From Escherichia coli (GTDB lineage Bacteria; Pseudomonadota; Gammaproteobacteria; Enterobacterales; Enterobacteriaceae): 64,000 nt of DNA. The notes beneath the pieces were generated by a model. That model was not told the DNA's origin. It saw only the letters and a program-made list of their open reading frames with translations, and made no database searches. The translations under genes and the position numbers were made by a program. Below are positions 14,913 through 18,644 of this stretch, one piece after another (the first letter of the stretch is position 1; every line of letters starts with the position of its first letter). The stretch is from assembly GCF_003334785.1 (NCBI RefSeq), contig NZ_QOWV01000015.1. One strand, given 5' to 3'.

Positions 14913-16973
14913 ATGCTACCAAAAGCCGCCCGCATTCCCCACGCCATGACGCTTCATGGCGATACGCGAATCGATAATTACTACTGGCTGCGGGACGATA
15001 CGCGTTCTCAGCCGGAAGTTCTGGACTACCTGCAACAAGAAAATAGTTACGGTCATCGGGTGATGGCCTCACAACAAGCCTTGCAGGATCGCATCTTAAA
15101 GGAAATCATCGACCGCATTCCGCAACGAGAAGTTTCTGCGCCCTACATCAAAAATGGCTACCGCTATCGGCATATTTATGAACCAGGCTGTGAATATGCT
15201 ATCTACCAGCGTCAATCGGCATTCAGTGAAGAGTGGGATGAGTGGGAAACATTGCTCGATGCCAATAAGCGCGCAGCTCATAGTGAGTTTTATTCGATGG
15301 GCGGAATGGCGATTACGCCCGATAACACCATTATGGCGCTGGCAGAAGATTTTCTTTCCCGACGCCAGTACGGCATTCGTTTTCGTAATCTGGAAACTGG
15401 TAACTGGTACCCGGAACTGCTGGATAACGTTGAACCCAGCTTTGTCTGGGCAAATGACTCCTGGACTTTCTACTATGTTCGCAAGCATCCGGTGACGCTG
15501 CTGCCTTATCAGGTCTGGCGTCACGCCATCGGTACTCCAGTATCGCAAGATAAACTGATCTACGAAGAAAAAGACGATACCTATTACGTCAGCCTGCATA
15601 AAACGACCTCGAAGCACTATGTAGTCATTCATTTGGCCAGCGCCACCACCAGTGAAGTTCGCCTGCTGGACGCGGAAATGGCCGATGCCGAGCCGTTTGT
15701 TTTTCTGCCGCGCCGCAAAGATCACGAATACAGCCTTGATCACTACCAGCATCGTTTTTATCTGCGTTCCAACCGCCACGGCAAAAACTTTGGCTTATAC
15801 CGTACCCGTATGCGTGATGAGCAACAGTGGGAAGAGTTAATTCCGCCACGCGAAAACATCATGCTGGAAGGGTTCACGCTGTTTACCGACTGGCTGGTGG
15901 TTGAAGAGCGTCAGCGCGGGTTAACCAGTTTGCGCCAAATTAACCGCAAGACCCGGGAAGTCATTGGTATTGCCTTTGATGATCCAGCCTATGTGACCTG
16001 GATTGCCTACAATCCAGAACCTGAAACCGCGCGATTGCGTTATGGTTATTCTTCCATGACCACACCAGACACTTTGTTTGAACTGGATATGGATACCGGT
16101 GAGCGTCGTGTATTAAAACAAACAGAAGTGCCCGGTTTTGATGCGGCGAATTACCGCAGTGAACACCTGTGGATAGTCGCCCGTGATGGCGTCGAAGTTC
16201 CGGTTTCGTTGGTCTACCATCGCAAACATTTTCGCAAAGGACACAACCCGTTGCTGGTGTATGGCTATGGTTCTTACGGCGCAAGTATTGATGCCGATTT
16301 CAGTTTTAGCCGCTTGAGTTTATTAGATCGTGGATTTGTCTACGCCATTGTCCATGTTCGCGGCGGCGGTGAGCTGGGGCAACAATGGTACGAAGACGGT
16401 AAATTTCTGAAGAAGAAAAATACGTTTAATGATTATCTTGATGCCTGCGATGCATTGTTAAAACTGGGCTATGGCTCTCCTTCGCTTTGTTATGCGATGG
16501 GCGGGAGTGCGGGGGGCATGTTGATGGGCGTTGCAATTAATCAACGCCCGGAATTATTCCACGGCGTTATCGCCCAGGTACCGTTTGTTGATGTTGTAAC
16601 AACGATGCTTGATGAATCAATTCCTCTTACCACTGGTGAGTTTGAAGAGTGGGGTAACCCGCAGGATCCGCAATATTACGAGTACATGAAAAGCTACAGC
16701 CCGTATGACAACGTCACCGCACAGGCTTATCCGCATTTACTGGTAACGACCGGTTTACACGATTCTCAGGTGCAATATTGGGAACCGGCAAAATGGGTCG
16801 CTAAATTGCGCGAGCTGAAAACCGATGACCATCTTTTATTGCTCTGTACCGACATGGACTCAGGCCATGGCGGTAAATCTGGTCGCTTTAAATCGTACGA
16901 AGGCGTAGCGATGGAATATGCTTTTCTGGTCGCGCTGGCGCAGGGAACATTACCCGCTACGCCTGCGGATTAA
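14913..16973 (+). CDS. ptrB: Oligopeptidase B (protease II) PtrB
   Basis: 686-aa ORF; S9 prolyl-oligopeptidase family, catalytic Ser in GGSAGG. Confidence 0.93.
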
Positions 16974-17632
16974 GTATTTTCCAGATAATGTTTCAGTGTT
17001 AAACGCAGCTCCGGGCTCATACTGTCCAGGTTATTAAATAACCAGCGCAGATAGCCCGGATCGCGTTCGGCAACGTCGGAAACCGCTTTGCCACGGTATT
17101 TGCCAAAGGTGAAGGTCGTCATCAACGACGGACGTCCGGTGATATCGGCCATCTGTTCTGCCGTCCAGCCGGAGGTGTTCATAATATCGATAAGCAACGC
17201 GGCGGTGATATAACAGTCATACAACGCGCGGTGATGATGCAGGCCCGGCGGCGTCTGTACATTGAGCTTCCGTGTTTTATATAACGCCATATTGCTGTAC
17301 TTGATTCCTGGCCACAAGCGACGGGCCAGTTTCATGGTGCAAATCCACTCACCGGGCATCTCAGGCAGTACGCGGCGGTCAAAGCTGGCGTTGTGCGCGA
17401 CATACCATTCACTGCCGTAATAGTGTGGGATCACATCTTCAATCCACGGTTTATCGGCGACCATGGCTTCGGTGATGCGATGAATCGCCATCGCTTGTGG
17501 ACTAATAGGACGATCGGGGCGCACCAGGTGGCTCATGGGGTTGACGATTTTTCCGTCAATGACATCAACAGAGGCAATCTCAACGATCCCTCCCTGCAAA
17601 CCGCAGGTTTCTGTATCGATAATGCGCAACAT
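16970..17632 (-). CDS. exoX: Exodeoxyribonuclease X (DEDDh 3'-5' exonuclease)
   Basis: Start trimmed to [15 protein letters not shown] (220 aa); stop overlaps the convergent ptrB stop by 4 nt. Confidence 0.9.
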
Positions 17633-17655
17633 GGCATGCTCCAGGCCGAAAAAGC

Positions 17656-18312
17656 CTAGCGTAATGGAATGATATCGCCTTGCCAACCCTGTGATGAACG
17701 CTGACCGACTAACAATAATGAACCATGATCGGCGCGAACGATGAGACGACCATATTCATCCCATAGTGCACTGTTACCACGGGCATTTGCCATCAGCACA
17801 GCAATCGAGTACTGATGTGAAAAAAATTGTAAGCGACGGGCCGACGCCAGCAGGTCGGGTTCTCCCAGACATTGCCCTGTCGTAAACAGTGAACAGGTCG
17901 GGTCCATATCCATACCTTGCGGTTGTTCATCTACCACCGTGATGGTTCTGGAACGACGGCCCAGACATGCACCATGACTCTGATGGTAGATCCCCGGCGT
18001 TTTTCGCCACGGTGCGAACACCGCAATTCCACGAATAAAGCGATCGTTATATTCAACGGGAAGGCCGGCAATGATGGTCATTCGCCAGGTCGTTGCGGCA
18101 TAACAAAGCGGGTCTAACAGTGAGAGATCGGGTGGGGCAGGAAGGGCACGTCGCGAATAATCACACCCCAGTAAAGAAAGCGATGGAAAAACTAACAGCT
18201 GACATTGTTGCCTGGCGGCGGCCCTCACAAACTCCAGATGATGAGCTACCTGTTCGGTGAGTGAGGTTTTACGAGGCTCATATTGCGCTGCTGCAACTTT
18301 CCAGAACGACAT
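17656..18312 (-). CDS. yobB: C-N hydrolase (nitrilase-superfamily) protein YobB
   Basis: 218-aa ORF immediately upstream of exoX on the same strand (23-nt gap). Confidence 0.85.
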   Translation of the reverse strand: MSFWKVAAAQYEPRKTSLTEQVAHHLEFVRAAARQQCQLLVFPSLSLLGCDYSRRALPAPPDLSLLDPLCYAATTWRMTIIAGLPVEYNDRFIRGIAVFAPWRKTPGIYHQSHGACLGRRSRTITVVDEQPQGMDMDPTCSLFTTGQCLGEPDLLASARRLQFFSHQYSIAVLMANARGNSALWDEYGRLIVRADHGSLLLVGQRSSQGWQGDIIPLR

Positions 18313-18413
18313 AATGACTTCCTTTTCAAAATGACTGCAAATTATGGGTGCGGTTTAGAAAATACTCATAATTTAGCAGGCGTTATGTAAGAAAGTGTAA
18401 CTCTGTATAAGTT

Positions 18414-18644
18414 TTATTTAAGTTTGGGCTCGTAAGGTAAACGTGACAGATTGACCGAAGCCAAACGGTGGGCAATAAGCCGCTCGCGAAACCAGCTGCG
18501 CAAATGTTCAGGCTGTTCACGTTCAACCGCTTCAGCGATCACCGGCATATTGTAGCGTTCTTTAAATGCCACCCCGGCCGCCGCCAAATCGACATTCACT
18601 TTATCCATTTCTGTTTGATCCAGTTTAGCCAGATTCTTCAGCAT
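18414..18644 (-). CDS. holE: DNA polymerase III theta subunit HolE
   Basis: Start trimmed to [31 protein letters not shown] (76 aa). Confidence 0.88.

Follow-up and report, generated by a model that had tools for sequence, protein, structure and literature searches.

YobB, a probable pseudoenzyme of the nitrilase superfamily encoded in the conserved holE-yobB-exoX locus of Escherichia coli

The holE-yobB-exoX locus and its transcription unit

The window, a 64,000-nt stretch of E. coli chromosome, carries a cluster in which the genes are named ptrB, exoX, yobB, holE, and yobA in RefSeq, and its 1.9-kb region of interest was matched in all of the complete E. coli genomes searched (5426/5426). 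On the minus strand, holE (18414..18644, stop codon included), which encodes the 76-aa theta subunit of DNA polymerase III (ORF, RefSeq, and NCBIfam NF008207 with 163 bits over 1-76/76), is followed after a spacer of 101 nt, from the holE stop to the yobB ATG, by yobB (17656..18312), encoding a 218-aa protein with a nitrilase-superfamily fold and no catalytic residues, and then by exoX (16970..17632), encoding the 220-aa exodeoxyribonuclease X. The exoX product matches the NCBIfam equivalog NF005937 (463 bits, residues 1-219) and combines a DEDDh exonuclease with an ExoX-like C-terminal domain, represented by PF00929 and PF20600 in homologues. The ORF list gives a longer exoX reading frame starting at TTG 17686, but the NCBIfam alignment supports the annotated ATG at 17632. 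The plus-strand gene ptrB (14913..16973; ORF and RefSeq), encoding oligopeptidase B, runs towards exoX until their stop codons overlap within TTAA (16970-16973); a convergent ptrB is kept in related loci. The order holE-yobB-exoX is already annotated in E. coli and is conserved. The gene order and coordinates in a preliminary description of this locus agree exactly with the ORFs and RefSeq, and its distance from yobB to exoX on the same strand is likewise exact, with 23 nt between the TAG at 17658-17656 and the ATG at 17632.

The gene names are established, as are the yobB-exoX unit and its promoter: genomic SELEX led to the report of a promoter in the holE-yobB spacer, "TATACA-16-CATAAC", for an operon listed as yobB-exoX (PMC3946193). 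This constitutive sigma-70 promoter was placed in the window by eye against the published sequence, and it occupies 18382..18409 on the minus strand, with the -35 element TATACA at 18409-18404, a 16-nt spacer, and the -10 element CATAAC at 18387-18382. A simple consensus scan for promoters and terminators did not flag it; the scan gave nothing useful in the holE-yobB spacer and only one weak hairpin, on the plus strand. Overlapping the promoter is a conserved motif, GTAAGAAAGTGTAAC (18387..18401, plus strand; TTACA-N5-TTACA on the minus strand), the core of which, GTTAC-N6-TTACA, is kept in 11 of the 13 genera aligned. The motif resembles a CpxR box with two mismatches; however, two-mismatch matches occur at chance level in the window (72 found vs 54 expected), and the CpxR reading was retained as a lead only. 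The CpxR iModulon includes yobB, though not as a direct target.

Ribosome-binding sites precede both genes. A Shine-Dalgarno sequence AAGGAAG lies upstream of yobB (18318..18324, minus strand), with AAGGA kept across genera, and the 23-nt yobB-exoX junction (17633..17655, minus strand), GCTTTTTCGGCCTGGAGCATGCC, contains the exoX Shine-Dalgarno GGAG at 17642-17639. This junction is 22-24 nt long in 67 of 79 species, and its GGAG is conserved. A scan for terminator-like sites between the two genes found none on the minus strand. Thus yobB and exoX lie on the same strand with a short gap and no intervening terminator, and exoX has its own ribosome-binding site. The co-transcription proposed in the preliminary description remains plausible on the basis of the junction, its GGAG, the lack of a terminator, and the published operon (PMC3946193). 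We picture yobB-exoX as a conserved two-gene operon of Enterobacterales, which in E. coli would be transcribed from the constitutive sigma-70 promoter in the holE-yobB spacer, possibly with read-through from holE, each cistron having its own Shine-Dalgarno sequence.

Nitrilase fold and catalytic positions of YobB

The assignment of YobB to the C-N hydrolase family, made in the preliminary description, is supported by both sequence and fold. Pfam CN_hydrolase (PF00795) matches YobB in two pieces, with E-values of 2.2e-19 (residues 5-113, model positions 1-112) and 1.6e-06 (residues 116-208, model positions 149-249), and model positions 113-148 are unmatched. The predicted structure and fold comparison show the four-layer alpha-beta-beta-alpha sandwich of the nitrilase superfamily. 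A direct sequence search of the PDB gave a marginal match to 50 N-terminal residues (E 0.086), too little to map the site, and a YobB-only profile (A1) aligned residues 1-96 only. Because the C-terminal half of YobB is too diverged, intact relatives of about 250 aa were needed as a bridge. At the sequence level, the best match of YobB together with these relatives is the glutaminase domain of NAD+ synthetase (5kha, 4f4h, 3n05; NCBIfam PRK02628/PRK13981). In the profile of the intact relatives, FPElS, yaKqhL, and laiCaD correspond to the E, K, and C motifs found in these domains, and the residues aligned in the Nesterenkonia amidase 3hkx are E61, K131, and C165. None of E44, K111, E118, and C143 varies among 19 intact relatives.

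YobB has lost the catalytic residues. Codon 44 (TCG, Ser; 18181..18183, minus strand) stands at the catalytic Glu position in the alignments, changing FPE to FPS, and YobB FPSLSLLG aligns with FPELSVIG of 5kha and FPELSLTGY of the intact relatives. Among 81 orthologues, 27 have Ser at residue 44, 3 have Ala, and 51 have Glu; the Ser and Ala forms are those of Escherichia, Citrobacter, Salmonella, and Intestinirhabdus, and the Enterobacter-type orthologues have Glu. Codons 102-139 (17896..18009, minus strand), where the Pfam positions 113-148 are skipped, are a shortened remnant of the segment in which intact relatives have their catalytic Lys, second Glu, and nucleophile Cys; they form the least conserved block of YobB and have the lowest pLDDT (76-82). 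Deletion has removed the Glu118 region as well as the helix after Cys. Alignment of the middle 40 residues is unstable, each of three methods placing them differently, and aligning the 81 orthologues to the intact-relative HMM with hmmalign also left unstable gaps at residues 100-140; we therefore give three alternative alignments and not one residue-for-residue mapping. The catalytic Lys column (Y-x-K-x-H-L motif) falls on H110 (MAFFT A2), on Q111 (MAFFT A3), or in a 12-aa gap (hhalign), and the nucleophile Cys column (A-I-C-A-D elbow) falls in a gap (MAFFT A2), on D128 (MAFFT A3), or on V127 (hhalign). Across orthologues the Cys-column residue may be D, T, S, A, E, or G. No Lys is conserved among 79 orthologues, and their sole invariant Cys, C37, stands at a position that is mostly Val or Ile in the intact relatives.

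Since the Glu-Lys-Cys triad, which the preliminary description proposed to look for as a test of its reading, is absent, the name hydrolase used for YobB in the preliminary description is unjustified, and a working hydrolase is very unlikely, as judged from sequence and predicted structure. Literature searches on YobB function, on YobB with nitrilase, and on nitrilase-superfamily pseudoenzymes returned incidental mentions only; they found no published YobB enzyme assay and no paper on a comparable inactive member of the nitrilase superfamily or on the YobB active site. A re-invented site, though improbable, could for instance use the semi-conserved G114-A-C116, or the conserved H25, C37, S46, D185, R193, and D195.

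Conservation of the linkage, stepwise active-site loss, and selection

The order holE-yobB-exoX was found in all 80 of the Enterobacteriaceae species sampled, and a CN-hydrolase gene also lies just upstream of exoX in Pantoea, Serratia, and Rouxiella. The linkage is thus not limited to close relatives but occurs in three families of Enterobacterales (Enterobacteriaceae, Erwiniaceae, and Yersiniaceae). Adjacency to holE is found in Enterobacteriaceae and Erwiniaceae; in Yersiniaceae the "sandwich" between holE and exoX described for this locus is broken by two inserted genes. At the Klebsiella and Cronobacter loci examined, yobB is absent while holE-exoX is kept; Mangrovibacter has a yobB-like gene without exoX, and homologues found outside Enterobacterales are not adjacent to exoX. 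Synteny across these families covers the entire neighbourhood, yebY-copD-copC-holE ... ptrB-yebE-yebF/G-purT, and adjacency alone therefore carries little information.

The same-locus CN hydrolases of Erwiniaceae and Yersiniaceae (252 aa in Pantoea/Erwinia, e.g., WP_024968305; 248 aa in Serratia; 254 aa in Rouxiella) take the place of YobB directly upstream of exoX, in an orientation convergent with ptrB, and in Pantoea this place is also downstream of holE. They are 29-45% identical to YobB, with common N- and C-terminal blocks (AAAQ, FP.LSL.G, N..., SA.W, GW.G). Unlike YobB, they keep Glu44, Lys111, Glu118, and Cys143, and they exceed it in length by about 30 residues. An NCBIfam search with the intact orthologues, run for the ancestral substrate, gave no match above curated cut-offs.

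These comparisons suggest an order for the losses. YobB probably descends from an active amidase-type member of the superfamily of about 250 aa, which in Erwiniaceae and Yersiniaceae still stands just upstream of exoX with its Glu-Lys-Glu-Cys site intact. Loss within Enterobacteriaceae would have struck the nucleophile Cys first (to Ser or Asn in Buttiauxella, Atlantibacter, and Mangrovibacter, Buttiauxella-type intermediates having Ser at the Cys column), the Lys second, and about 30 residues around Cys and Lys third; the final step, in the Escherichia-Citrobacter-Salmonella clade, would be the change of the catalytic Glu to Ser.

YobB is still under purifying selection after losing the catalytic residues. 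Its dN/dS (Nei-Gojobori) is 0.09-0.12 overall and at most 0.14, compared with about 0.025 for ExoX; the Ser/Ala44 clade has 0.051 and the Glu clade 0.138. Across 79 species, 48 positions are invariant. The protein evolves at about four times the rate of ExoX and HolE, and yobB is the fastest-evolving gene of the cluster except yobA. Of 81 species loci, 79 have a full-length ORF, and 5425 of 5426 E. coli genomes carry yobB, with 38 of 40 sampled copies being exactly 657 nt. An A7/T7 homopolymer run inside yobB (17820..17826, plus strand) is a frameshift site in some E. coli lineages, in which the truncated variants P0006, P0041, and P0059 diverge after ...RRLQFF; IS30-insertion and deletion-fusion alleles were also seen in E. 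coli. Photo-crosslinking MS has picked up the YobB protein in vivo. Several observations count against viewing YobB as a pseudoenzyme, namely the Glu retained by Enterobacter-type orthologues, the dispensability of the gene in at least two genera, the frameshifted alleles, and the faster evolution.

Interpretation and comparison with known systems

To our knowledge, all known members of the nitrilase superfamily need a thioacyl-enzyme intermediate. YobB keeps the alpha-beta-beta-alpha fold but, lacking the catalytic residues, could not form this intermediate, which would make it a pseudoenzyme. Because its sequence is nevertheless under purifying selection, a non-catalytic binding role is most likely; YobB may work by binding a ligand or protein via its conserved N-terminal strand/loop and C-terminal sheet. 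Overall, we consider it probable that this known locus carries, in a conserved yobB-exoX operon, a maintained YobB pseudoenzyme with a non-catalytic binding role.

Strong purifying selection would also be expected if YobB were still an enzyme, cutting a C-N or other bond with non-canonical residues recruited after the loss of the triad. The polar residues invariant in 79 orthologues (H25, C37, S46, S181, D185, R193, and D195), the catalytic Glu kept by half of the orthologues, and the Ser of the Buttiauxella-type intermediates are consistent with such an enzyme. However, Q10, H25, S46, N176, S181, W184, and W210 are invariant in the intact relatives too and hence look like scaffold and not like a new site, while the old pocket segment ranks lowest in the protein for both conservation and prediction confidence and the Cys-column residue is variable. 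Selection in the Glu-less clade is at least as strong as in the Glu-bearing clade, so that the Glu is not the feature being preserved, and we regard a recruited active site as improbable. At the other extreme, YobB might be functionless, a slowly decaying amidase relic with an ORF kept by its position before exoX for transcription or translation of the operon. The stepwise catalytic loss and shrinkage of the protein, the outright deletions in Klebsiella and Cronobacter, the disrupted E. coli alleles, and an evolutionary rate exceeded in the cluster only by yobA would fit such a relic, which is even more doubtful, given that a dN/dS of 0.05-0.14 points to constraint at the amino-acid level not expected from an expression-only role, that 48 positions are invariant, that nearly all species loci and about 95% of the complete E. 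coli genomes sampled have an intact ORF, and that exoX has its own Shine-Dalgarno sequence. A decaying pseudogene was rejected on the basis of dN/dS and ORF integrity.

It is also conceivable that YobB acts without catalysis on ExoX or on theta/Pol III, as a partner or as a regulator, in which case the linkage would reflect a physical or functional complex for DNA repair or replication. The tight, short junction between the CN-hydrolase gene and exoX across Enterobacteriaceae, Erwiniaceae, and Yersiniaceae, the adjacency to holE in the first two of these families, and an ASKA over-expression screen for H2O2 resistance, in which both yobB and exoX were among the positives, would agree with this idea. 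By contrast, the neighbourhood-wide synteny makes the adjacency little informative, YobB evolves four times faster than its supposed partners, and the genes part company in both directions, with holE-exoX lacking yobB in Klebsiella and Cronobacter, a yobB-like gene lacking exoX in Mangrovibacter, and a homologue outside Enterobacterales not adjacent to exoX. When YobB and ExoX were modelled as a (GGGGS)5-linked fusion in AF2 with a 28-species paired alignment, both halves folded, and the pTM was 0.49 with no confident interface; this is a weak negative. An obligate YobB-ExoX complex is undermined by this model and the independent gene losses but was not rejected outright, since the tool lacks PAE output and does not model multimers. 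We therefore give such a partnership little credence, and the link to DNA metabolism implied in the preliminary description finds no support in the same observations; nothing found ties YobB to replication or repair. A more specific proposal, likewise a long shot, is that YobB is a selected non-catalytic nitrilase-fold adaptor with a pocket or dimer surface that binds a metabolite or protein, modulating DNA-end processing by ExoX or the theta-epsilon proofreading module. If so, the Enterobacterales series would record an enzyme turned regulator, from intact in Pantoea/Serratia through Cys-less in Buttiauxella and stripped in E. coli to deleted in Klebsiella.

The probable pseudoenzyme status of YobB opens no long-standing question, and its value lies elsewhere. 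It corrects the annotation, in that YobB of E. coli, Citrobacter, and Salmonella lacks all four catalytic residues and would warrant no amidase reaction in metabolic reconstructions, and it offers a concrete handle on one remaining E. coli y-gene. The YobB series appears to be a compact natural case of active-site decay at a fixed chromosomal position, running from intact through Cys-less, Lys-less, shortened, and Glu-less to deleted, in which purifying selection outlasts catalytic death, and it could serve studies of pseudoenzyme evolution.

Like pseudoenzymes generally, YobB is a homologue of an enzyme family that has lost all catalytic residues while purifying selection and expression persist; it differs from them in that its sole published contact is a single photo-crosslink to AceF. 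Compared with Nit2/omega-amidase and the small archaeal or bacterial amidases of the superfamily (mouse Nit2 2w1v, P. horikoshii PH0642 1j31/6ypa, and Nesterenkonia amidase 3hkx), YobB shows only 15-17% identity, and whereas enzymes of the Nit2/omega-amidase type have a Glu-Lys-Cys site with a second Glu and form a thioacyl intermediate, YobB has none of these residues. NAD+ synthetase gives the best likeness at the sequence level, and the N-terminal 95 residues of YobB, including the FPE loop, align well with its glutaminase domain. Unlike glutamine-dependent NAD+ synthetase, however, YobB is a stand-alone protein of 218 aa with no synthetase domain, scores far under the family cut-offs (18.6 vs 473 bits), and has Ser in place of the catalytic Glu.

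The yobB locus and its promoter in E. coli

The three genes lie on the minus strand of the window: holE (18644-18414, an ORF of 76 aa matching the NCBIfam theta model at 163 bits), yobB (18312-17656, 218 aa) and exoX (17632-16970, 220 aa, matching the NCBIfam ExoX equivalog at 463 bits). The holE-yobB spacing is 101 nt, and the yobB stop is separated from the exoX ATG by 23 nt, GCTTTTTCGGCCTGGAGCATGCC, which contains a GGAG Shine-Dalgarno sequence. The coordinates and locus anatomy given in the preliminary description are exact. In a mechanical ORF list, exoX starts further upstream at TTG 17686 and runs into the end of yobB (17632-17686); the start supported by the alignment to the ExoX equivalog model from residue 1, and by a GGAG 6 nt upstream, is the annotated ATG at 17632. 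The window is a piece of E. coli chromosome. Its 1.9-kb region around these genes is found with 95-100% identity in every one of the 5426 complete E. coli genomes, under the RefSeq gene names ptrB, exoX, yobB, holE and yobA. On the plus strand, ptrB converges on exoX, and their stop codons overlap in the palindrome TTAA (16970-16973), with no gap between the two genes and no hairpin resembling a terminator. At 20508-20652, downstream of yebY, Rfam identified two sRNAs antisense to each other, SraC/RyeA on the minus strand (175 bits) and SdsR/RyeB on the plus strand (114 bits), as expected in this E. coli region.

The yobB-exoX arrangement is already annotated, and genomic SELEX placed TATACA-16-CATAAC, a constitutive sigma-70 promoter, in the holE-yobB spacer, with the operon given as "yobB-exoX" (PMC3946193). 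We found this promoter on the minus strand at 18409-18382. Overlapping it is GTAAGAAAGTGTAAC (18387-18401, plus strand), which reads TTACA-N5-TTACA on the minus strand and is kept in 11 of 13 aligned Enterobacteriaceae genera. With two mismatches, it is similar to the CpxR box GTAAA-N5-GTAAA, a resemblance that on its own is at chance level (72 matches in the window vs. 54 expected). The CpxR iModulon includes yobB, though not as a direct target.

Linkage across Enterobacterales

We compared the locus in 80 species of Enterobacteriaceae, including Escherichia, Citrobacter, Salmonella, Enterobacter, Kluyvera, Leclercia, Lelliottia, Trabulsiella and Pluralibacter. In all 80, holE, yobB and exoX lie on a single strand, and every locus long enough to include ptrB has it in convergent orientation. 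Measured from true stop codons, yobB and exoX are 22-24 nt apart in 67 of 79 cases (range -7 to 38 nt), with the GGAG conserved. Longer relatives occupy the same slot in Atlantibacter (241 aa), an Enterobacteriaceae contig (245 aa) and Buttiauxella (243 aa), as does a 252-aa relative with an intact site in Pantoea sp. IMH. In Serratia and Rouxiella (Yersiniaceae), exoX is preceded at a distance of 26 or 17 nt by an intact gene of 248-254 aa, and holE is ~2 kb from the pair, behind two inserted minus-strand genes. The linkage therefore extends beyond close relatives, contrary to the first refuting outcome named in the preliminary description; the CN-hydrolase-exoX pair is conserved in three Enterobacterales families and predates the adjacency to holE. 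Because the whole neighborhood is syntenic in these families, adjacency alone carries little functional information. Nor is the linkage obligatory: the Klebsiella pneumoniae and Cronobacter dublinensis loci lack yobB, with 78 or 75 nt between holE and exoX; in Mangrovibacter, holE is followed by a degenerate homolog of 234 aa and then ptrB, without exoX; and a homolog from outside Enterobacterales is flanked by fatty-acid genes.

Several other features of these loci were observed. In the Serratia and Rouxiella loci (L092 2060-3631, L094 2563-3516), an alpha/beta-hydrolase gene on the opposite strand lies between holE and the pair, as does a DksA-like zinc-finger gene in Serratia, and a ferritin gene lies between copC and holE. 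Directly beyond yebY, the Atlantibacter, Mangrovibacter and Buttiauxella loci (L081 474-1556, L087 1622-2701 and L098 1-254) carry a phage-type integrase alongside Exc or other prophage genes, which suggests a recurrent prophage integration site adjoining the yebY-copD-copC-holE block. YobB orthologs of 228-230 aa in Scandinavium, Pluralibacter and related genera (loci L033, L044, L059, L065, L071 and L076) carry a ~12-residue C-terminal extension, PLRESLxxIDExxCGA, with a conserved Cys-Gly/Asp-Ala end, which is absent from E. coli YobB. Some holE-yobB-exoX loci or proteins of Enterobacteriaceae or Erwiniaceae type also appear under the labels Chryseobacterium sp. 18061, uncultured Raoultella, and Pseudomonas cerasi or graminis (loci L054 and L011; proteins P0317, P0320 and P0518); the assemblies behind them are probably contaminated or mislabeled.

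Loss of the catalytic residues

A HMMER search over the whole library recovered a gradient of relatives, from 218-aa YobB orthologs through 234-245-aa intermediates to ~250-aa proteins. In the latter, Glu44 (FPELSLTGY), Lys111 (Y-x-K-x-H-L), Glu118 and Cys143 (A-I-C-A-D) are invariant. In a profile that includes these proteins, the motifs fall opposite the catalytic E, K and C of the glutaminase domains of NAD+ synthetases and of the Nesterenkonia amidase. A count along the alignment as printed gives the amidase positions as E61, K131 and C165 (3hkx numbering), the catalytic residues of that enzyme. The Glu-Lys-Cys triad proposed for checking is missing from E. coli YobB. The Glu column holds Ser44; the Lys column holds His110 or Gln111 in two MAFFT alignments (A2 and A3, respectively) and a 12-residue gap in hhalign; and the Cys column holds a gap, Asp128 and Val127, respectively, so that none of the three places a Lys or Cys at these columns. 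The placement of residues 100-140 is unstable between alignments, and residues 100-160 have the lowest conservation and model confidence in the protein. Among 79 full-length orthologs, no conserved Lys was found, and the sole invariant Cys is C37 (18202-18204); it lies 7 residues N-terminal to the site of the lost catalytic Glu, is mostly Val or Ile in intact relatives, and its conservation is YobB-specific. By fold and descent YobB is a member of the nitrilase superfamily, but by every residue-level criterion it is not a catalytically competent one, and it very probably lacks canonical hydrolase chemistry.

Lined up by locus, the proteins form a decay series. All four residues (Glu, Lys, Glu and Cys) are present in the Erwiniaceae, Yersiniaceae and Pseudomonas proteins; Buttiauxella and the 245-aa form retain the Glu with Ser at the Cys column, the Lys possibly being retained in Buttiauxella; and at that column "Enterobacter sp. 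R1," Atlantibacter and Mangrovibacter carry Asn and also lack the Lys. In the Enterobacter and Kluyvera types, ~17 residues around the Lys and Cys strands and ~9 near the C-terminal loop are missing as well, and in Escherichia, Citrobacter and Salmonella the Glu is also replaced (Ser in 27 loci, Ala in 3). This distribution of residues suggests the sequence in which the losses may have occurred.

Maintenance, possible role and relation to known proteins

The yobB ORF is full length in 79 of 81 loci, and photo-crosslinking MS has detected the protein in vivo, linked to AceF. Pairwise Nei-Gojobori dN/dS across 71 species is 0.09-0.12 for YobB, about 0.025 for ExoX, 0.00-0.02 for HolE, 0.03 for PtrB and 0.07-0.13 for YobA; within YobB it is lower in the Glu-less clade (0.051) than in the Glu-bearing clade (0.138). 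At least 80% of yobB is present in 5425 of 5426 E. coli genomes, and in a spread sample of 40 complete genomes it measures 657 nt in 38 and 656 nt in one, with an IS30 insertion in the other. Frameshifted alleles exist, several at the homopolymer at 17820-17826 (A7 on the plus strand, T7 in yobB). The truncated E. coli variants that lose frame at this run include P0041, P0059 and the 178-aa P0006, whose cluster has 736 member sequences. Another E. coli protein, P0058 (NCBI; 218 aa), is the product of an in-frame deletion that joins residues 1-108 of YobB to ExoX's C-terminal half; it carries the annotation "exodeoxyribonuclease X" and lacks the N-terminal exonuclease motifs. Taken together, these findings show that YobB is maintained, though dispensable, and is not a pseudogene.

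Neither the sequence, as the preliminary description held, nor the literature indicates a function for YobB, and published mentions are incidental: yobB is up-regulated in a persister time course, appears in a Nac/OmpR note and, together with exoX, is among the hits of an ASKA H2O2 screen. A YobB-ExoX complex is the idea that suggests itself first; when YobB-(GGGGS)5-ExoX was folded with a 28-species paired alignment to test it, each half folded (pLDDT about 85) and no confident interface was evident (pTM 0.49, as for two unplaced domains), a weak negative from a single-chain model without PAE. On our preferred account, YobB is a pseudoenzyme that acts by binding, through the parts still invariant: the AAAQY strand, the FP-x-LSL-x-G loop and the C-terminal SALWDE...IVRAD...LLLTG...GWQGDIIPLR sheet. 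Its co-expression with exoX would be historical, not mechanistic, in origin. We regard this account as a whole, including the absence of canonical hydrolase chemistry, as fairly probable.

We found no paper on the YobB active site or on a dead nitrilase-fold protein of this type. The closest relatives of YobB are the intact same-locus proteins of Erwiniaceae and Yersiniaceae, for which NCBIfam gave no equivalog at or above cut-off that would name a substrate. The locus, family assignment and operon are already known; what is added here is an annotation-level correction of YobB and an evolutionary series of active-site decay.
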